64,000 nt of DNA, from contig CAVSMN010000009.1 of NCBI GenBank assembly GCA_963729045.1, positions 128,001 through 192,000 on the forward strand, written 5' to 3'. Shown here piece after piece: positions 14,266 through 27,293 of the stretch. A program made the translations under genes and the position numbers. Within the stretch, counting starts at the first letter, position 1; each line of letters opens with the position of its first letter. Under the pieces are notes generated by a model. The model saw only the letters and a list, made by a program, of their open reading frames with translations, was not told where the DNA came from and searched no databases. This DNA is from an uncultured Nitrososphaeraceae archaeon (lineage in GTDB: Archaea > Thermoproteota > Nitrososphaeria > Nitrososphaerales > Nitrososphaeraceae).

Positions 14266-15726
14266 ATGGTCAGAAGTATCCCTGAGTCGGAGCGCATCTT
14301 GGTCTTTTAAGGTGGTGGGTCGCTTGGAGCTTACGAAGCAGGAGCGTACAAAGGGATTTATGAGCTGTTGAAAAAAAAAGATAACAGTAAGTCAATTTAC
14401 AACAAATCTACATTTGACATAATCGCTGGTTCCTCGATAGGTGCGATTAATGCAACCATACTAACAAGTCATGTAATTGAGACTGGTTCATATGATGGTT
14501 CAGCGGAAAAATTAATTGATTTTTGGCACTATCTTTCTAAGGAATCGATGGTCGAAAAAAATCCTTTTTTCGAAGAATGGTGGGATTTTTGGCATTCAAT
14601 TTATAGCCATGTTGCGTCAGGAGAAGCTGCCAGAAGGTACTACTCGTCCAAGGAATTTTCGCTATTTGGCGTACCCAACGTGTTCACTCCCATGACACCA
14701 CAATCTGACACAAAGTTTTTTGATATCCAGAATACATGGTATAGATTTGACATCAAGCCTTTAAAGCGAAGCTTGGAGCGATTTGCAAAGTTTCCAATAG
14801 CGACGGAATGGGAAGACGGACAACCAAGGCTCTTGTTAATATCGGTTGATGTCGCTACCTCTTATCAGGCTGTTTTTGATAGTTATAAACGAAAAGACGG
14901 CACCAGATGTTCTGAATATGGTAGGCATATAAGAAAGCATGATGGCACAACGGGATTTGAATATGTTATCCATTATGACGAGGGCATCACGTCCGATCAT
15001 GTCATTGCTAGTGCAGCATTCCCAGTTAACTTTGATTATGTGAATTTGAATGTTCAAAAATATGATGTTTCTCAAGGCAATCAGATAATCTCTAATGAAA
15101 CAAAGATTGACAAATTAGAATCTAATGAGTATAAAATTCAGCAGAGAAAATTCTGGGATGGCGGCTTGATGAATAATACTCCTTTGATGAGCGCCATCCA
15201 GAAACACAGAGACTATTGGTATTATACAAGAGGTATAGTAAATAATATTCCCTCCTTAGGGATAGCTATAGTAAATCTGCATCCGTCTGCACAAGAGGAG
15301 ATCCCCATTGATCATGACGGGGTACTAAATAGAAACAACGATATAACTTTCTCAGACAGATCGATTACAGAGGAGGGGTATCTATTACTTATTTCAGACT
15401 ATGTAGATTTAGTTAAACAGTTTATAGATTTGTTGATTGAAACAGGGATAAAAAAAGAAAAAATAGATTCTATTTTGGATAGCAAAGTAAGACCTCACGG
15501 TATGTTTTCTAAGATAAGAACATACAGAAATATTGTGGAAGGCCGATTCAATATAACAGATGTAATCAGAATAGAAAGAAAGAATGATGAGGATACAATT
15601 TCAAATAAAACATACGATTTCTCTTCTAAGACAATAAACGAATTATTGAAACAAGGTTATTTGGATTCGATTGAATATGCTAAGAAAAATCAACAGGACA
15701 AGAATAAAGACGATATAAGCAAGTAA
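14266..15726 (+). pseudogene. Patatin-like phospholipase with an in-frame TAA at codon 15
   Basis: ATG 14266 ...LVF*GGGSLGAYEAG; nucleophile GSSIG; DGG motif; TAA at 14308-14310. Confidence 0.85.
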
Positions 15727-16907: not shown

Positions 16908-17771
16908 TGCACAAAGTAATTTTAATAGGATTTAGATTTCCATGAGTGAGTAAATGAGATTAGGGAAGGACGAAATTAATAGTAAAATGGTATTTTCTTC
17001 TATCATGAGCGGGTTCACTTTGATGGATAAATAACTATAACTATTTCAAAACATCGCCAAATAATTTTACTGTCTTTGGAAGATTTTTAAGAGCGCTCCC
17101 TAGTTATTTCCCCTTACTGTACACAGTCCTTCTGATATTACTAGAATCTTCTCAGGTTAAAGACCAATCTTGATACTTCTTTTCCCTTTTCTGCGAAATA
17201 ATTACATTCCTGGTCAATGCTTTTTTCTGGTAGAAATTAATATAGTTAAAGAAAAATTTTAGACATTCTTTCTAATATTCTTTCTAAAGTCAGTTACTGG
17301 CTTACCATTTATCGTTACATTCATCTTTTTATTACTCAACCTATTCCGCATCATATATTCAAGAAATCTTGGAACTAACAATTTCACTACCATGTAAAAG
17401 ACGATAATTTAGAATTCAAAATGAATAAAAAAATGGAGTTTTAGGCGATTGTCTTTCTAAAGAGGTGTAGGGCCTAAAAGCGAGGTGTAGGGCCTGATGA
17501 ATTGGTTTCATCAGTGTTACATCTACTTAGCGCATCCTGTTGTGCTTGACTAACCCGGGTTGGGTGTTTTACAATAGATTATCAACCTCAGCCAATACCA
17601 CCTTTCCGTCATGAGCAGTCATATTTTCATCTGTCAGCACGTTCCATATCCCAGTCATATTAGTTACTGGACCGTTAACTCCACCTATGTATTCAATGTC
17701 AGTAATCCTTTTTCATCATGGTCGGCAAATATCTTATCGATATTCTTATATACTTTTTAAAGAATCGTGCA

Positions 17772-18469
17772 ATGATGAAAATCTTTTTAGTTTTTGCTTC
17801 AATCCTTACTGCCATGTTATTAGTAACGATATATAGCGGTGACAACTGGATTGATCAACTACAACTTTGGCCCAAACAAATGACATGGAAGTTAACAACA
17901 CCAATTCGCCTGCTTCTTCTGAAAAAATGTCTATTGTTTCTGCTGCTAGTCCGGGCCAGACTATCTTTTATAGAGGGATAGAGGCATCCAAAGAGCCGGT
18001 TCATTTAAATTTTCCACAACAAGATAGACAACAACAGACTTTAAACATATTGCCACATCGAGATGATGGCGCTTCATTTAAAGGGGTTCTGACATTTACA
18101 GCAACTGAGCCAGTGGATATAGGAATTGGACATAGAGTGCCTTTGGATAATTCTACTTTTTCACAAATTGAATCAGAGGAACTTGATGAATTGTTTACTG
18201 TAAGACACAATGACAAAGGAGAATTAGGAGTACCTGGCATCGTAAGTGCTCCCTCTAGGATTACACCTGACTATGGAATTAATCCTCCCTATTTCTCCGC
18301 CTCAATTCCTTTTGTTGGTAGTTCTCTATTCCTTAGCACAATGCCTGGCGAGTACGAGCCGTTCGTTGCTGTTTATGAAGTGTCTGCGGAGATCATACAG
18401 CTTCAGGATATTGTTGACTTGGATGGCCTTAATGTTGGTACAAACACAACTGTCACAGCCTTACCATAA
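17772..18469 (+). CDS. Secreted hypothetical protein, frameshifted just after the signal peptide (~17860)
   Basis: Signal peptide MMKIFLVFASILTAMLL in one frame, mature LAQTNDME... in another. Confidence 0.6.
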
Positions 18470-19125
18470 TTTTTTTTACTTTCTAATCATTGTTAGACAT
18501 AATTTATCTTCAATTACAAATTCTTTAAAATATCACCTTATTTGTAGTTCTTCTCTTAGTTAATAATTGGTAAAAATTAGTTGGATGAGTCCAAATGTTT
18601 AATTTATTTTTTAGATTTATTAAGTAATGTATTTGAGTAGAATTATTGGTATGGCAAGTTTTGTATGATTTCAGAATTTTACCTAAATTATGATGAAACT
18701 ATATAAAGTAATATTCAAAAAGTTTGGATTGTTATTGAAAAACTATTCGAATGATATGGATCATTATTATTTACAATTGGGAATTAAAGATCCAGAAAAA
18801 CCTTTCTCCTTTGAATAGTGAAACCTATATTGCATTCAACTGTTCCTATTTAATAGATCCTAAAATCAAAAGATATTCTCCGTCTGACTGGTCTGGCGAA
18901 GTTTTGTTCTATAAATAATTGTTTACGGATTTATACAGGCTTTCCATGCTTGATCTGCTGCCTGATGTATTTTCCAAGATATGGAATTTCACAAGTTTTG
19001 AGCCTATCGAAATATGCTCAATATTAGTACAAACGGCTTTCAGAATTGATAAAATCTTTTTTTAGTTATAGCCATCCCTCAACGTCATTGATCAATTATA
19101 CGAGTTACTAAGATCAAAAAGAACA

Positions 19126-21291
19126 TCAATCAGTATTTTCAAATACCATTACGTAAAATGGTGAACTACTCGAATTTGAAGTAACTAGAGAGAGGTATTC
19201 ATCACATGTATTGATCCGATTGAGTTGAGTATCGTGGACGAGTTGTATCAAAGTTTCTACCTTTAAGGGCCTCATATTTATGGAATGGGTTTTTTGTTGT
19301 TTTTTAAATGAAATGTCGAGTATGGCGTTATTTTTCTTTGTAGTAATTTTTTCAATTTTCATAGTATTAGATCCAAAAAAGGACTCGTTAAAGCTTGGAG
19401 CAGTACGTTTCCTATTGTTTTTTGGTGATGTAGCAAAGAGATTGAGCAAATCGAGAATTAACCATCCACCAGGCTTGAGAATCAATTTCAGATTTTCTAT
19501 ATATTGTTGTATTTGCTCATCGCTTTCAGCGCAGGATATTCTACTTCCCAATCCAATTATAATATCGAATTTTTTAGCCAATGGTTCAAACTTGTTAGCC
19601 AATTGTAGCCAACTTAGATTAAGTAAATCAAATGGGTTGTTTGATCTCTTTCTTGTAATTTCGTAAATATGTGGTTCTGGCTCATTATATAAAATGTTAG
19701 TAATCCCTTTTTCATATAAGAGCCAACATAGTGATCCAAACCTACCAGCTGAATCAAGAATACAAATGTCTGAAGTATTATGAATCCCTTTTTCATGTAT
19801 ATATTTATCACAGATATTTGATACTACTTCATCTATTTTCGAGTGATAGGATATATCTAAAAGTTCGGGCACCCATGCATCTACAAAATCACTCTTAAAA
19901 ATGGATTTTGGTCGTCGGTTGATCATTTCATCATAATAATTCATATCAATTTTGGTTGCTTTTCCTTCATTGGCTAGTCCTTTTAGTGCATTCATATATT
20001 GAACACAATTATTGTAATATTTTTGATTGTTCTTAGTATCGGTAAAATATATACTTCGCTTACATATCTCTTCAGTCGGTGTAGCATGCAATTTTCCAAA
20101 CTCTAGAATAAACTTATCATACCATATTCCAGTATCATATAAATCCCCATCCCTAACTAAATCATTTTCCTTTCGTTTGTCTAATGCGAGTTTTGGATCA
20201 ACTAGTATTAAGTTAACATTATTATTTTGGTGCCATTTGATAATATCTTTCGTTTTTAATGGTTCACTCCAGATATCACTTTCCAATCTATACTTCTTCT
20301 GAATTAAAAACCTGAAATTGTCTTTCTTCTCCTCATCATTTAACTTTTCTCGTCCTCTCTTTTGCTCTGCTAGATAAGACTTGTCTATTTCTTCGAAGAA
20401 GGACAATGGCCATACAGTTGAACCGTCATATTTTCTACCCTTTTCAAAGAAATACTTGTATAGAATTTTTACCCTTTCCTCTGACATAACACCACCTTTT
20501 TTTGAAATTTCATAGAGGCTTTTTCCCTCATCTAGCAATATTTCCTTTAGATATTCTTTAAGAGGTTCCTGAATTGCACTATGCGTAGAACTCAAATCAT
20601 TATCCAATACAAAGGGATCAAATGCCTTGTCAATCAAAGACCGTTTGTCCAAAGGCTCTAATTCAGTTCCGAATTGATAATTTCCAAAGTTTCCATGAAA
20701 GGAATAAACAGGAATAGGTCCTTTCCATTTGATTTCTCGCAAATAGGGTGTAAATAGGTTTTTGCCATCGGATTCTTCATAGTTTGTCAATACATCTTTT
20801 CCCTCTGCTGATGGAATTTGATTTCTCGCTGCTGGGGTAAATATTATGTGTCCTCGATCTCCCAAATCCATCATTCTAGCCGACAGAATCAGTTCGTGAG
20901 ACCAAAGATCCACTTTATTAGTAAATGGATTAGAGAATGAAATGGCTTTTCCATACCCAATGCCGGCGCGTACAAATATTTTCATTTTATCATCTGTGAT
21001 TCCACTATTGTCTAGATCCAAATTATTAGAAATTCTTATGGCTAGATCTATTGCACACTCAAGTTTAGTAAAAGCTATTACAACTCCATCTCCAGTAAAA
21101 TTCTTATATGTTATAATATCTGACTTGTATTTTGTTTTCAATGCATTTGATTCTTCATTTAGTATTTCCATTAACTTTTTAATTTTTACTAATTGACTGC
21201 TTGGAGGTAGTGAAGGGTCTGACGATTTATACATATCAATATAGAGAAAACTATAAACATTATTTTGATCAACATTGGATTCAACTGACAC
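19126..21291 (-). CDS. Class III nucleotidyl cyclase-like domain + middle domain + class I SAM methyltransferase-like domain
   Basis: FLYIDMYKSS, FTGDGVVIAF, VRAGIGYG, DLW...SARMMDLGDRGHI (cyclase); ILDSAGRFG, FDIIIGLG, LKPGGWLILD (MTase); intact 721-aa ORF. Confidence 0.8.
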   Translation of the reverse strand: MSVESNVDQNNVYSFLYIDMYKSSDPSLPPSSQLVKIKKLMEILNEESNALKTKYKSDIITYKNFTGDGVVIAFTKLECAIDLAIRISNNLDLDNSGITDDKMKIFVRAGIGYGKAISFSNPFTNKVDLWSHELILSARMMDLGDRGHIIFTPAARNQIPSAEGKDVLTNYEESDGKNLFTPYLREIKWKGPIPVYSFHGNFGNYQFGTELEPLDKRSLIDKAFDPFVLDNDLSSTHSAIQEPLKEYLKEILLDEGKSLYEISKKGGVMSEERVKILYKYFFEKGRKYDGSTVWPLSFFEEIDKSYLAEQKRGREKLNDEEKKDNFRFLIQKKYRLESDIWSEPLKTKDIIKWHQNNNVNLILVDPKLALDKRKENDLVRDGDLYDTGIWYDKFILEFGKLHATPTEEICKRSIYFTDTKNNQKYYNNCVQYMNALKGLANEGKATKIDMNYYDEMINRRPKSIFKSDFVDAWVPELLDISYHSKIDEVVSNICDKYIHEKGIHNTSDICILDSAGRFGSLCWLLYEKGITNILYNEPEPHIYEITRKRSNNPFDLLNLSWLQLANKFEPLAKKFDIIIGLGSRISCAESDEQIQQYIENLKLILKPGGWLILDLLNLFATSPKNNRKRTAPSFNESFFGSNTMKIEKITTKKNNAILDISFKKQQKTHSINMRPLKVETLIQLVHDTQLNRINTCDEYLSLVTSNSSSSPFYVMVFENTD

Positions 21292-21329
21292 AATATCCGA
21301 AGAATTATCGTATTATAAAAATAATTTGA

Positions 21330-21590
21330 TGTTAACCAAAAGGTAGTATTCAGAGTTTTTCCATCACTAACGTAATTTACTGCTAATATGCTTGCATAAT
21401 CAGACCCCAAATGAGTAATTGCATTGCCATAAGTTTGAACCAAATCACTCCTCTGATTACTAATTTCCTTGTCAGAGATTAAAGATTCATCAAATGCAGG
21501 AGACACAGCAAAAGTTTGGGAAAATAATGTGGAAGAAATATCGCGAATAACAATACTAATACTATTGATAATAATACGGCTGTAAATACA
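21330..21590 (-). pseudogene. N-terminal fragment of an exported protein
   Basis: Hydrophobic leader, then (after a frame change) FAVSPAFDE...ILAVNYVSDGKTLNTTFWL; plausible coding sense ends just upstream of the cyclase gene. Confidence 0.45.
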
Positions 21591-22363
21591 ATATCAAAGG
21601 AGAAGAATACCGGAAAGTGTTTTTTCATAATTTGCAAATCCTGCAAGTAAATTGCTACACATTGAAAATTGAATCACATGTAAATAAGGCTTTATCACAC
21701 TGCAAATGAAACTAACTAAAGGCAGACATATTTCAAGAAAATTAGATTTGAAACACTTACTGTCATCTTTATCCTTTTCCACCCATTTCATCGATTCGCT
21801 AGTTTTTGGTAATTCTTTACTGTTAAAGAGATTTAGAACTTAGAAGTATATGTATAAAAAAAGTTTGAATGAATAACAAATACTAATCTACTATTGACAA
21901 CATCCTGAATCTCGTGCTATTTGATTTGACCTGTTGCCTTGCATAGACAATATTTGATGTACATGAAATAATACGAATAGTAAATATTAGAGTTTATGAA
22001 GACAATTCTGCAATATTTCGTAGTATCTTCTTTCCTTAAAAGAACACGAACTTGATAGGCTAAAAATACAAGAATAAATCAAACGAAGGCTTGGGATTAG
22101 ACAATCTTTGTTGTTACATAATTTAGAATATTGGAAATAATTAATCCTAAAGAATATATCTTGAATTTCTAAATCATGCGATTTTGGTAATAAGGGATTT
22201 TACTTCTTAAGTTAACAGTTGTGTAGATGATAAGATATATCCATCTGTAAAATGATTATGCTTGTTTAGGTATGACACCGCAACACATTTCAGCTAATCA
22301 TCCCGGATTATCATTACTATGAGGGATACATTCTATCAGAACTATTCCCAAATGAATTAGCCT

Positions 22364-22875
22364 TTATTGTAACCCATGATACTCAATCTTTTTCTTTAGG
22401 ATTAATGATTTCATTTTGTCTAGTTCAATTTGCAAAGTTCGTAATTCTTTTTTCTTATGTTCAACATAATCATAGACTTGGTGAATAGAAATTCCAAGTC
22501 CCAATGCGAATCTATGAATTTCATGTATTTCTTTAACAAAATCCGAAAAAGTTTGGTTTGTTTTGAAGGAATGAATATCTATTTCCGTGAGTAATCTTTC
22601 CATCTCTCTCTCTCTGAAGATCCCATTTGTTCTAAAAAATTTTTTATCCTGATACCTGATGCCACGTCATTTAGACTCAAGCCTTCTTGTTTTATCCTTA
22701 CAGCAACTGCTCTTAACACATCCAAGTCTGGAATATCGGATTTAAATGACTCGATGATTCTAAATACACTACCATAACCTATTCCATTGCAGGTAGCGAT
22801 CATATTAGTCGGTATGCCAAAAAGCCACTGGTCAAGAACCTTGTTTTTAATTTCATTAGGAATTCTTTTTCCCAA
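22364..22875 (-). CDS. HTH + coiled-coil protein split by a 2-nt shift in an (AG)n run
   Basis: N-terminal HTH (NMIATCNGIGYGSVFRII); removing one AG at 22603-22615 fuses ORFs 22579..22875 and 22364..22603. Confidence 0.65.
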
Positions 22876-23015
22876 ATTTATTACGTACTTTTATATAAAC
22901 TTACCTATATAAATAAAATAAACACTTTTCCAAAGTTTGTCAGACAAACACGCATAAACTCTAAAGGGATGAGATTTTGACAGGTTTGGACGAGAGATAA
23001 ATTGTAGTTTGAGGA

Positions 23016-23113
23016 GATTCTGATAGGATTTGGATTAGTAGAATAGAGATGGACAAGATTCTGATAGGGTTTGGATTAGTAGAATAGAGATGGACAAGAT
23101 TCTGATAGGGTTT
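23016..23113. repeat. 41-bp tandem repeat, ~2.4 copies
   Basis: gattctgatagg(g/a)tttggattagtagaatagagatggacaa starts at 23016 and 23057, partial at 23098. Confidence 0.9.
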
Positions 23114-23327
23114 AGTGTTAACAAGATCTGGCTTTATTTGACTCCATTCGAGATAGATCATTTTGTATTAGAATTATTGGTAAGGCTATCTTTTTGATAA
23201 TTAATGTTGAAAGTCGGTAAGGAATCTAGTTAATACATAAATTAATATAAAATATTACAAGTACCGTTTTTAAACTCATTTATTCTATATTTGGTTTCTA
23301 TAGGAAATATTTGAACCAAATATTCAA

Positions 23328-23419
23328 TGGGGCCAGAGGGATTCGAACCCTCGACCGCCAGCGCCCCGGGCTTATACCCAAAAATTGGATGGTATCCTGC
23401 CAAGCTAGACGATAGCCCC
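23328..23419 (-). tRNA. tRNA-Pro(GGG) with an 18-nt intron at non-canonical position 29/30 (23372-23389)
   Basis: Acceptor GGGGCTA/TGGCCCC-A; T arm GAGGG-TTCGAAT-CCCTC; spliced anticodon arm CCAGC-CCGGGGC-GCTGG; BHB motif. Confidence 0.9.
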
Positions 23420-23532
23420 CTTGTTTATTAAAAATAAACCTCTCATTTTTAAACCTAAGTATACAACTAATTGCAGAGAAATTCTAAAGATACATTTTAA
23501 TAATTAGTTAAATGCTTTATAGCATATCATTT

Positions 23533-24525
23533 ATGCTGGTTAATGAACTAGATGCCATAGACAAAGAAATACTTAATGATATTCAATGGTCTTTTCCTTT
23601 GGTTGAAAGACCGTTCTTAGAAATGGCAAATAAATACCAATTAAAAGAAGAAGAAGTTCTCGATAGAACTCAAAGATTAAAAGATATTGGAATTATTAGA
23701 CAGATAAGTGCAATTTTTGATACTCGTAAGTTAGGATACAAGAGTGCGTTAGTGGCTTTTTCAGTGGATAAGAATAAGATAGATTATGTCGCTAATGAAA
23801 TAAACAAACACCCAGGTGTAAGTCACAACTACGAAAGAAATCATGAATACAATGTTTGGTTTACGTTAGCTGTATCTCCGGATGCAGATATGAAAACCGA
23901 TTTAGATAGAATGGCCTCCCTAGATGGAGTTTTAAAATATAGAGTATTACCAACGCTAAAAATGTATAAAATAGGCGTGAAATTGGACATGGTAAATGAT
24001 GATCCTGAAAAACCTAGTCCCACCGACGATGTAAAAAAAATGGATGCAAAAGCAGAGAAAATATCAGAAGTGGATAAAGAATACATTAGACAATTGCAAA
24101 AAGATATCAAGATAATTAGAGAACCATTCAAAACAATCACGGATAATTTGGGAATAAATCTGGAAGAGCTCTTTAACAAAGTTAAGGAATATCAAAATAT
24201 AGGCATCATGAGAAGATTTGCAGCAATTCTTAGGCATAGGCAAGCAGGCTTTACGGCAAATGGAATGATAGTATGGAATGTGCCGGAAGAAAACATAGAT
24301 CAAATAGGATTAAAAATCGCTTCTTTTCCGCAAGTAAGTCATTGTTATAGACGTCCTATATACCCAGACTGGGAATTTAATCTTTTTAGCATGATTCATG
24401 CTAGAACAATTGATGCAGCTGAAAAAATAGCAAAGGAAATATCTGCAATAATTAAAATTGATAGATACAGAATATTGTTTAGTTCCAGAGAATTTAAAAA
24501 AGAAAGAGTAAAATATTTCGAGTAA
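23533..24525 (+). CDS. ahbAB: Siroheme decarboxylase, fused AhbA/AhbB (NirDL/GH-like)
   Basis: Two Lrp-like halves; HPGVSHNYERNHEYNVWFT and VSHCYRRP...WEFNLFSMIH. Start is 23512 or 23533. Confidence 0.88.
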   Translation: MLVNELDAIDKEILNDIQWSFPLVERPFLEMANKYQLKEEEVLDRTQRLKDIGIIRQISAIFDTRKLGYKSALVAFSVDKNKIDYVANEINKHPGVSHNYERNHEYNVWFTLAVSPDADMKTDLDRMASLDGVLKYRVLPTLKMYKIGVKLDMVNDDPEKPSPTDDVKKMDAKAEKISEVDKEYIRQLQKDIKIIREPFKTITDNLGINLEELFNKVKEYQNIGIMRRFAAILRHRQAGFTANGMIVWNVPEENIDQIGLKIASFPQVSHCYRRPIYPDWEFNLFSMIHARTIDAAEKIAKEISAIIKIDRYRILFSSREFKKERVKYFE

Positions 24526-26456: not shown

Positions 26457-27293
26457 TTAACCCAGGCTCTTAATTATCTCCTCTATATTTTTTAGGACAC
26501 ATGGGATCATCGGTGTATCTTTAATGATATATTTACTAACTTGAGTTTCACGTAGGTCTATGATCAAGTTCTGGAATCTTGAAAGATTGTCAGTTTCAAA
26601 AGCCAACATGAAATCCTGATCATCAATTCCAAATGAATATGTGGTATTAAGTCGAATTTCAGGATATTTTCTTCCAACTCTTATATGTTCTTCCATCATC
26701 TCTTTTCTTTTCTCAAAGGGCAAAAGATACCATTCCCGAGATTTAATAAATGGATACACTACCGCATATTGCAATGGCTCCTCTTCAGTTTCAAATCCAA
26801 GTTTAACCTGATTTGAATAAAATGATTTTCTAGTTAAAGAAAGATATGTGGATGTAGGTTCTATATATTTTCCCAGTATAGTAGTATAAATTTTTGTAGC
26901 CAGCACCTGAATATTTTCTAGTGATGACGACATGGTCCAAATCATAAATTCACTATCGTGTCTTAAACCGATGGTAGAATAAGTTCTAATTTTCATTCTC
27001 TTGCGTGCAGCATTTAATAATTCAAGAAACTCGCGCGAAGCCTCATCTTTGCCCATCTCATTTAGCCAACGCCACTTGGGATCTACTTTATAAAATGTAA
27101 AAGTAAAGAATTTTTCAGAGTTATTCTTGTTGTCGGATTCATCAGTCTTGGCATCCGATAGTTCAGGATCTTTGGTAGTTGTTAAAGTGTTCACACCATC
27201 ATCATCTCTTGCATTATTTAAATTATCAATTTTATTTTTATTAATACTAGATAAATTATCAACTTCTAAAGGCCTTTTATTCTTGTTTCGCAT
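26457..27293 (-). CDS. Chlorite dismutase / coproheme decarboxylase (Cld/ChdC) family heme-binding protein
   Basis: YPFIKSREWYLLPFEKRKEMMEEHIRVG, TTYSFGIDDQDF. Confidence 0.88.
   Translation of the reverse strand: MRNKNKRPLEVDNLSSINKNKIDNLNNARDDDGVNTLTTTKDPELSDAKTDESDNKNNSEKFFTFTFYKVDPKWRWLNEMGKDEASREFLELLNAARKRMKIRTYSTIGLRHDSEFMIWTMSSSLENIQVLATKIYTTILGKYIEPTSTYLSLTRKSFYSNQVKLGFETEEEPLQYAVVYPFIKSREWYLLPFEKRKEMMEEHIRVGRKYPEIRLNTTYSFGIDDQDFMLAFETDNLSRFQNLIIDLRETQVSKYIIKDTPMIPCVLKNIEEIIKSLG

Follow-up and report, generated by a model that had tools for sequence, protein, structure and literature searches.

What a single archaeal polypeptide may do with a nucleotide cyclase-like domain, a middle domain outside the Pfam families and a methyltransferase-like domain is the question raised by one gene (P0001; Table 1) in a 64,000-nt stretch of DNA (hereafter, the window) from an uncultured Nitrososphaeraceae archaeon (contig CAVSMN010000009.1 of assembly GCA_963729045.1, positions 128,001 to 192,000). 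A preliminary description, made from the sequence alone, had read this gene as an intact fusion of a class III cyclase that keeps both metal-binding Asp residues and lacks the substrate Lys and the Asn, a degenerate phospholipase D (PLD)-like middle, and a glycine/sarcosine N-methyltransferase (GSMT)-type C-terminus; each of these assignments was borne out here. We consider it possible, if somewhat short of probable, that P0001 is a dimeric nucleotide cyclase gated by S-adenosylmethionine (SAM), S-adenosylhomocysteine (SAH) or another ligand of the module formed by its middle (M) and methyltransferase (MTase) domains.

Integrity and domain make-up of P0001

P0001 is the sole open reading frame (ORF) of at least 120 aa between window positions 18469 and 23512. 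Its nearest database proteins show 94% (a hypothetical protein of Candidatus Nitrosocosmicus sp.) and 88% identity (a SAM-dependent methyltransferase); the host is thus a soil ammonia-oxidising archaeon with a Ca. Nitrosocosmicus genome. Intact orthologues were found in three other species genomes of the genus (G008, G014, and G041; the genome of the window is G000), and the GTG start codon of P0001 is an ATG at the equivalent codon in G008 and G014. Comparison with these two orthologues by the Nei-Gojobori method gave a ratio of non-synonymous to synonymous rates (dN/dS) of 0.077-0.078 for the whole gene (45.5 non-synonymous and 121.5 synonymous differences against G008), and the gene is thus under strong purifying selection. 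The cyclase part is the most constrained (dN/dS 0.03-0.04), with higher values for the middle (0.08) and methyltransferase (0.12) parts; the linker between cyclase and middle domain showed 0 non-synonymous and 6 synonymous differences. An 8571-nt metagenome contig from an independent study covers window positions 18600-21900 unbroken; it differs by 8 substitutions and by 2 single-base indels that lie beyond the ORF, and because it covers the gene whole, the fusion is no assembly chimera, an outcome that the preliminary description had named as fatal to its reading. While the GTG start and the repeat-rich flanks would fit a chimera or a decaying pseudogene, this contig, the intact orthologues, the low dN/dS, and runs from six studies that contain half or more of the words sampled from the gene leave such an artefact with a negligible chance.

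Two metatranscriptome studies provided five short contigs that match without error and all map within the ORF, with none on the close flanks (18600-19154 and 21264-21856); four of five RNA-library rows contain less than one tenth of the gene's sampled words. These data are compatible with transcription of P0001, which is probable though not proven by them. A TATA-like box (Table 1) keeps its distance from the start codon in both compared genomes, and similarity to the orthologous loci stops just upstream of it. With so short a distance between this box and the start codon, the transcript may be leaderless, in which case the GTG start could matter for translation of P0001.

The N-terminal part was compared to proteins of known structure through a profile (A3) built from 17 short relatives of this domain. 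The profile matched 44 PDB sequences at E <= 1, with class III cyclases on top; the best match was Ma1120 of Mycobacterium avium (5.6e-14), and further matches included mammalian AC9, AC8, and AC5, rhodopsin-guanylyl cyclase, and CyaB, among others. Relatives of the domain also exceed the PF00211 cut-off. Judging from these alignments, the N-terminus of P0001 is a divergent class III cyclase-homology domain (CHD). The roles of D19, D68, D128, R139, and the Lys and Asn positions (Table 1) are assigned from the (mammalian) adenylyl cyclase literature. The Lys position, four residues before the second Asp, holds N64 in P0001 and L, S or N in relatives, and the adenine-type D128 is kept; the nucleotide specificity of the domain is indeed as unclear as had been suggested. 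The subfamily also has invariant residues of its own (Q33, K36, and N95). Class III cyclases require a dimer.

The M domain was found in 50 of 127 collected sequences (local jackhmmer), and no Pfam family matched it in P0001 or 46 relatives (47 members, E <= 10). An AlphaFold2 model based on a 47-row alignment reached a predicted local distance difference test score (pLDDT) of 91.5 and a predicted template modelling score of 0.86. A Foldseek search of the PDB with this model gave six matches at E <= 1e-3, all of them PLD-fold (four TrmBL2 chains, BJ-TSA-9, and SauUSI), followed by rows for PLD, Nuc, NucT, FAM83, MITD1, and PssA. A comparison by VIA-align with 48,161 representative chains placed PLD-fold proteins in all of the top 26 rows (Z from 11.9 to 5.9), including SauUSI (11.9; root-mean-square deviation 3.0, 150 residues aligned), TrmBL2 (11.3), Nuc (11.1), NucT (10.8), Zucchini (10.7), and FAM83B (10.3), after which Z fell to about 5. 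The top structural matches include the ligand-binding, non-catalytic domains of TrmB and TrmBL2. The HxK(x)4D(x)6G(S/T)xN motif is absent from M; of this motif only H354 (96%) is conserved, and no conserved Lys or Asp was found at the spacing of the HKD motif. M is thus an HKD-less PLD-fold domain of the PLD superfamily. Its conserved residues are Y288, S297, R327, D339, W353-H354, L361, D386, G388, W390, and F398, several of which lie in the strings RFLI (327-330), WH (353-354), VNLILVD (359-365), and DTGIWYD (386-392). A word-based search with M alone recovered only three close orthologues, and leads from the ESM Atlas were all sub-threshold (best 0.88; DUF6879 on 12% of one cluster, 0.87).

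A homodimer model of M scored 0.75, compared to 0.01 for the best of three controls, with a contact agreement between runs of at least 91% and a partner pLDDT of at least 84. Of 30 proteins solved as one-chain pairs, 20 reached the mark used here, compared to 1 of 23 single-chain proteins; these counts apply approximately to M as a custom alignment was used; solved PLD-fold and TrmB dimers exist, and the result for M may therefore reflect its likeness to them. The predicted interface consists mainly of the long leading helix (aa 237-263) and a second helix (aa 273-285), and the conserved polar residues of M lie outside it. M is thus predicted, and likely, to homodimerise through its long leading helix.

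The C-terminal domain contains the strings DSAGRFG (513-519), SWLQL (559-563), FDIIIGLG (575-582), and LKPGGWLILD (605-614). With the P0001 sequence, a phmmer search of the PDB gave a single match (9ri2_A, 9.1e-7), together with weak matches to generic class I methyltransferases elsewhere; the profile of the M+MTase family (A4) matched GSMT (PDB 5h02) end to end across GSMT residues 50-283 (6.6e-51) and glycine N-methyltransferase (GNMT) at 1.2e-28. The consensus of this family includes ILDAAAGxGxE, NE, W, LGNSL, and DERNF. The P0001 (Nitrosocosmicus) clade retains D513, G519, E537, and W561 and departs from the family by G517R, E521L, N583S, S584R, E615L, R616L, and Y639F; column comparison thus confirmed the atypical motif I pointed out previously. 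Positions 583 and 616, conserved in the family as Asn (80%) and Arg (83%), are S and L in P0001, P0002, and P0003, whereas P0007 keeps both residues. They correspond to the Asn of LGNS and the Arg of D-x-R-N, which in GNMT structures hold the carboxylate of the acceptor. The C-terminus of P0001 therefore appears to be a GSMT/GNMT-type fold whose methyl-acceptor residues have been lost in this clade; despite this loss, the domain is still constrained.

Table 1. Features of the P0001 gene and its flanks (nucleotide positions in the window, residue numbers in P0001).
Feature	Position	Strand	Remarks
Whole ORF (P0001)	19126..21291	minus	721 aa + stop; GTG start
Cyclase-homology domain, putative divergent class III	20662..21291 (aa 1-210)	minus	Pfam, family profile A3, alignment
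Metal Asp 1	D19 (YIDM)		kept; nearly invariant in A3; aligns with DI of Ma1120
Substrate Lys position	N64 (NFTGD)		replaced
Metal Asp 2	D68 (TGDG)		kept; invariant in A3; aligns with GDG of Ma1120
Adenine-type Asp, two residues before W-G motif	D128 (D128-L-W130)		kept
Transition-state Asn position	I135 (ILSAR)		replaced
Arg	R139 (ILSAR)		kept; invariant in A3
Linker, cyclase to middle	20587..20661 (aa 211-235)	minus	outside phmmer domain matches
Middle domain (M)	19912..20586 (aa 236-460)	minus	predicted single HKD-less PLD-fold repeat behind long helix
Putative class I SAM-MTase fold, glycine/sarcosine N-methyltransferase type	19129..19911 (aa 461-721)	minus	NCBIfam, PDB, profile A4
TATA-like box TTTTTATAAT	21312..21321	minus	21-30 nt upstream of start codon; putative promoter element
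Upstream flank, dispersed repeat segments	21323..23115 (21323-21721, 21848-22096, 22207-23115)		multi-copy in genus genomes
Downstream insertion relative to G008	17254..18804		1.55 kb; 200-aa ORF (17867-18469), no family

Relatives, architectures and distribution

An exhaustive search of 1.84 billion sequences reduced to representatives identified 121 proteins related to P0001 at E <= 1e-3, 13 at E <= 1e-10, and 3 at E <= 1e-30, most of whose clusters are singletons. The search for the same architecture proposed in the preliminary description yielded the P0001 clade and P0007, the sole other clear three-domain relative (30% identity to P0001), along with relatives whose N-termini vary. The bulk of the family consists of M+MTase proteins whose N-terminus carries nothing, two hydrophobic helices or another short stretch; a crude hydropathy scan found at least one transmembrane (TM) window in 14 of 20 further proteins of this kind. 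Other architectures include cyclase+M (about 450 aa), TIR_2+M+MTase (P0077; TIR_2 E 1.6e-25), and M+MTase+KaiC (P0076). A second three-domain clade of about 685 aa (P0073, P0155, P0156, P0157, and P0159) carries another N-terminal domain that resembles a cyclase in its motifs only; no cyclase was among its PDB matches, and an hhalign comparison with A3 gave a probability of 8.8% (E 0.0038). A metagenome scan with A5 gave one distant relative of the N-terminal domain with a different C-terminus (L036) and was uninformative; none of 37 pattern matches in viral contigs encodes a relative of P0001.

In a tree of the M domain (47 rows, leaving out truncated P0004, short P0017 and P0102, and a duplicate query row), the cyclase-bearing proteins formed one starred clade (97/91) and P0001 and P0007 a starred subclade within it (98/94), with the TM- and TIR-bearing proteins outside. 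Most M domains occur without any cyclase. Conversely, members of the CHD subfamily that lack M were found fused to an EgtD-like PF10017 MTase (P0048, P0080, P0082, P0100, and P0005) or to a generic class I MTase (P0081), in addition to the GSMT-like MTase of P0001 and P0007; the trait common to these MTase partners is SAM binding and not a common acceptor. Other partners of the CHD subfamily are KaiC, an F5/8 type C domain, a cupredoxin, and an unassigned domain of about 190 aa. A 474-aa fusion of a KaiC-like ATPase to this subfamily, encoded on another contig of the genome (C21, L003 652-2076), is conserved across the genus and is annotated as KaiC in Ca. Nitrosocosmicus oleophilus.

Among 34 species genomes of the genus, only G000, G008, G014, and G041 carry the three-domain gene. 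In G008 and G014 it lies between an isochorismatase gene and a Ku gene, whereas G041 shares only window positions 19105-21324, i.e., the gene, its TATA box, and a 20-nt tail, with no other homology between the two loci within about 6-8 kb; because of this narrow shared segment, the gene appears to move as a single-gene cassette. A two-domain cyclase+M paralogue (30-34% identity) is present in 16 of 25 genus genomes, in a conserved setting between TruD, CopD, and winged helix-turn-helix genes and an ABC transporter gene in G012, G007, and G000; in G000 it is frameshifted into ORFs of 92 and 313 aa (contig C10, L002 1522-2864), while it is intact in other species. The pattern used identified 7 bacterial and archaeal M+MTase loci among 185,579 species genomes (Dehalococcoidia, Solirubrobacterales, Thermotogae, and Thermoplasmatales), with no common operon partner.

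The preliminary description had called P0001 intact among decayed neighbours; the intact gene and the low coding density of its flanks stood, whereas recognisable decayed genes were not found, the flanks being made up of multi-copy repeats and the 1.55-kb insertion. About 2 kb of upstream repeats extend to a tRNA-Lys gene (23328-23419, 92 nt, possibly intron-bearing); several contigs break at 21848-21896, and in the genus as a whole the upstream repeat segments are frequently found at the ends of contigs. The third repeat contains two overlapping small helix-turn-helix-like ORFs (22364-22603 and 22579-22875) without a Pfam or PADLOC family; it probably represents a small mobile element next to the tRNA-Lys gene. 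A few genus genomes contain parts of the downstream insertion at 69-76% identity. Paralogues of a patatin-like phospholipase (31% identity) are encoded at window positions 14368-15726 and at L037 1504-3237, both no more than about 5 kb from the three-domain gene, in otherwise unrelated contexts; this family has 8-11 matches per genome in several genus members. Further upstream of P0001, neighbouring genes encode a fused AhbA/B-type siroheme decarboxylase (23512-24525) and a protein of the chlorite-dismutase family (26457-27293), separated by aldo/keto reductase and DUF1802 genes; this segment may be part of the alternative haem pathway.

Possible functions of P0001

A ligand-gated dimeric cyclase is favoured here because the partners of the CHD share SAM binding and because class III cyclases work as dimers. 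P0001 would then be a functional cytoplasmic homodimeric enzyme in which pairing of M via its long leading helix would hold two class III CHDs together; the acceptor-less GSMT-like domain would sense a ligand, most plausibly SAM or SAH, and the conserved polar pocket of the PLD-like M might be a ligand sensor too. Sensing of the ligand would gate nucleotide cyclisation by the CHDs, whose product would serve as a nucleotide signal, either cyclic or modified in some other way; for P0001 itself, we infer catalysis, ligand, and direction of control. The genome encodes one protein with a cyclic nucleotide monophosphate (cNMP)-binding domain, a possible receiver, and at least four CHD genes of the P0001 subfamily; additional class III cyclases are named among the traits of Nitrosocosmicus in PMC13577086. 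Several observations weigh against a gated cyclase. PF00211 stays below its cut-off with P0001 alone (E 0.0075, 16.3 bits; cut-off 21.9 bits), and because the substrate Lys and the transition-state Asn are missing, throughout the CHD subfamily and not in P0001 only, cyclase activity may be weak, altered or absent. GlySarMtaseBact (NF051855) matched P0001 at 9.4e-5 with 22 bits, far from its 350-bit cut-off, and the Arg at the second glycine of motif I could impair SAM binding. A single-sequence AlphaFold2 model of full-length P0001 (pLDDT 35) offers no basis for inter-domain contacts, no gene for a cNMP receptor or effector adjoins P0001, and the patchy spread, cassette-like mobility, and TM- and TIR-bearing sister architectures fit a conflict system too.

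Such a system would be a single-gene conflict or defence cassette in which M+MTase senses infection (e.g., through depletion or alteration of SAM, or through a phage product) and the N-terminus executes, with the CHD making an alarm nucleotide or consuming nucleoside triphosphates where TM or TIR domains execute in relatives; we regard this as unlikely. It would account for a constant M+MTase core on which N-termini are swapped (two TM helices in most proteins, TIR_2 in P0077, and cyclases in P0001 and P0007), for the very sporadic occurrence of the family, and for a cassette found beside tRNA-Lys between repeat-rich flanks. PADLOC matches (E <= 1e-5) were also found near 5 of 6 M+MTase loci (none at L020; L018 was too short and was left out), including Old/GajA, PD-T7-4 with a Cas4-like gene, TIR PDC-S73 with HerA/mad8-like genes, a SduA fragment, and a PycC-like cyclase-STAND protein; this count has no matched control, and some of the matches are to generic domains. 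Against defence, no PADLOC model was found for P0001 at E <= 1, nor for P0007 and P0009 at 1e-5, none of the five window neighbours tested matched PADLOC, and the family is absent from the viral contig matches. Moreover, P0001 nests on the M tree in the CHD-M clade along with the two-domain paralogue of the genus, a core gene kept in synteny between TruD/CopD and an ABC transporter. The same stability of CHD-M as a two-domain unit would suit a make-and-break pair like GGDEF-EAL, in which M would be a divergent phosphodiesterase degrading the nucleotide made by the CHD. Members of the PLD superfamily are phosphodiesterases, and M retains an invariant-like polar set (Y288, S297, R327, D339, H354, and D386). 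However, M keeps only one His of the HKD motif, its conserved polar residues lie away from the predicted dimer interface, whereas Nuc-type dimers form composite HKD sites, and most M domains lack a cyclase; this function is very unlikely.

The output could instead lie with the MTase or with M+MTase, as a working enzyme on a small amine or phospholipid head group, leaving the CHD as a nucleotide-binding regulatory pseudo-enzyme, which the missing Lys and Asn would suit. The wider M+MTase family, a full-length GSMT homologue, keeps LGNS and D-E/Q-R-N, most of its members are membrane-anchored, PLD-fold lipid enzymes (PssA and PLDs) are among the structural matches of M, and both G000 and G041 encode patatin-like phospholipases and alpha/beta hydrolases at most about 5 kb away from the gene. 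However, the acceptor-binding Asn and Arg are replaced in P0001 and its motif I is atypical, the CHD is the most conserved domain and retains both metal Asp residues and the Arg, and two-domain relatives exist without the MTase; given 8-11 family copies per genome, the proximity of patatin genes is weak evidence. On balance, a methyltransferase output appears distinctly unlikely. By analogy with SAM-AMP synthesis, the CHD might have given up intramolecular cyclisation and transfer its nucleotide onto SAM held by the acceptor-less MTase fold, an idea to which we attach very little probability. This transfer would yield a messenger in which SAM and a nucleotide are conjugated, independent of any CRISPR system; the CHD would have been fused repeatedly to three unrelated SAM-MTase types because of a shared co-substrate, and the TM- and TIR-bearing sister proteins would belong to the same conflict-system family, with a new PLD-like plus MTase sensor.

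Novelty and comparison with known systems

While each fold is known, the M family, the three-domain architecture, and the recurrent coupling of cyclase and MTase appear undescribed; a narrow literature test found no published description of a cyclase-M-MTase or PLD-like plus GSMT architecture. The architecture is thus rare and, as the preliminary description had supposed, not a common well-described one, although it is present beyond this genome. M, with about 50 representatives, forms a branch of the PLD superfamily that lacks the HKD motif and has so far had no name, and is the fixed partner of a GSMT-like MTase under swappable N-termini (TM, TIR or cyclase); a divergent subfamily of class III cyclases that is common among ammonia-oxidising archaea of soils has repeatedly been joined to SAM-binding domains. 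To our knowledge, cyclic-nucleotide signalling in archaea has barely been studied. If the proposed coupling is true, it would link methyl-donor status directly to a nucleotide second messenger in archaea, while a defence role or a SAM conjugate would imply a new type of sensor or a new messenger chemistry.

The CHD of P0001 resembles class III cyclases (PF00211; Ma1120 as nearest solved structure) in fold-level homology, both metal Asp residues, the Arg, and the Asp before the W-G motif, and would likewise be expected to form a dimer. It differs from canonical members by the subfamily-wide replacement of Lys and Asn, its own invariant residues, its position N-terminal to its partner domains, and its score below the Pfam cut-off. 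M shares its fold, single repeat, and predicted pairing with PLD single-repeat domains, i.e., the nucleases Nuc, NucT, Zucchini, SauUSI, and BfiI and the non-catalytic TrmB/TrmBL2, FAM83, and MITD1 (VIA Z 11.9 to 7.0 over about 127-159 residues); it differs in having no Pfam family, its own conserved residue set, and a predicted interface formed by the leading helix. It also has no HKD motif, and in this respect the non-catalytic members are most like it. The alignment of the wider M+MTase family with GSMT and GNMT (PDB 5h02, 5gwx, and 1bhj) runs from end to end, and LGNS and D-x-R-N are common to all of them. P0001 has in common with these enzymes the fold, the Asp of motif I, the Glu of beta-2, and the Trp; it differs in the Asn (S), the Arg (L), and the second Gly of motif I (R), its MTase is fused behind two other domains, and no betaine-pathway partner gene lies nearby.

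Bacterial M+MTase relatives match mad2 of the MADS system, described (10.1101/2023.03.30.534895) as a DNA methylase in an 8-gene operon; the match covers only the SAM-binding core (roughly positions 280-410 of the 492 in the model; E 6e-16 to 3e-7), the mad2 model does not match P0001, and we judged this similarity to be that of generic SAM-binding cores. In type III CRISPR, Cas10 uses SAM together with ATP in the synthesis of SAM-AMP, according to PMC10600005. Its likeness to P0001 would be conceptual, in a palm-type nucleotidyl-transferase domain that is distant cyclase kin; unlike in that system, P0001 has no Cas10 and no CRISPR context, and SAM as a substrate is an analogy only. Pycsar (a PycC cyclase with a cNMP-activated TM or TIR effector) is like P0001 in its class III-type cyclase, and the TM and TIR N-termini of relatives of P0001 recall its effectors. 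It differs in that no PycC model matches P0001 (E <= 1) and no gene for a cNMP-binding effector is adjacent; while Pycsar consists of two genes, the P0001 family carries TM, TIR, and cyclase domains at the same position of one polypeptide.

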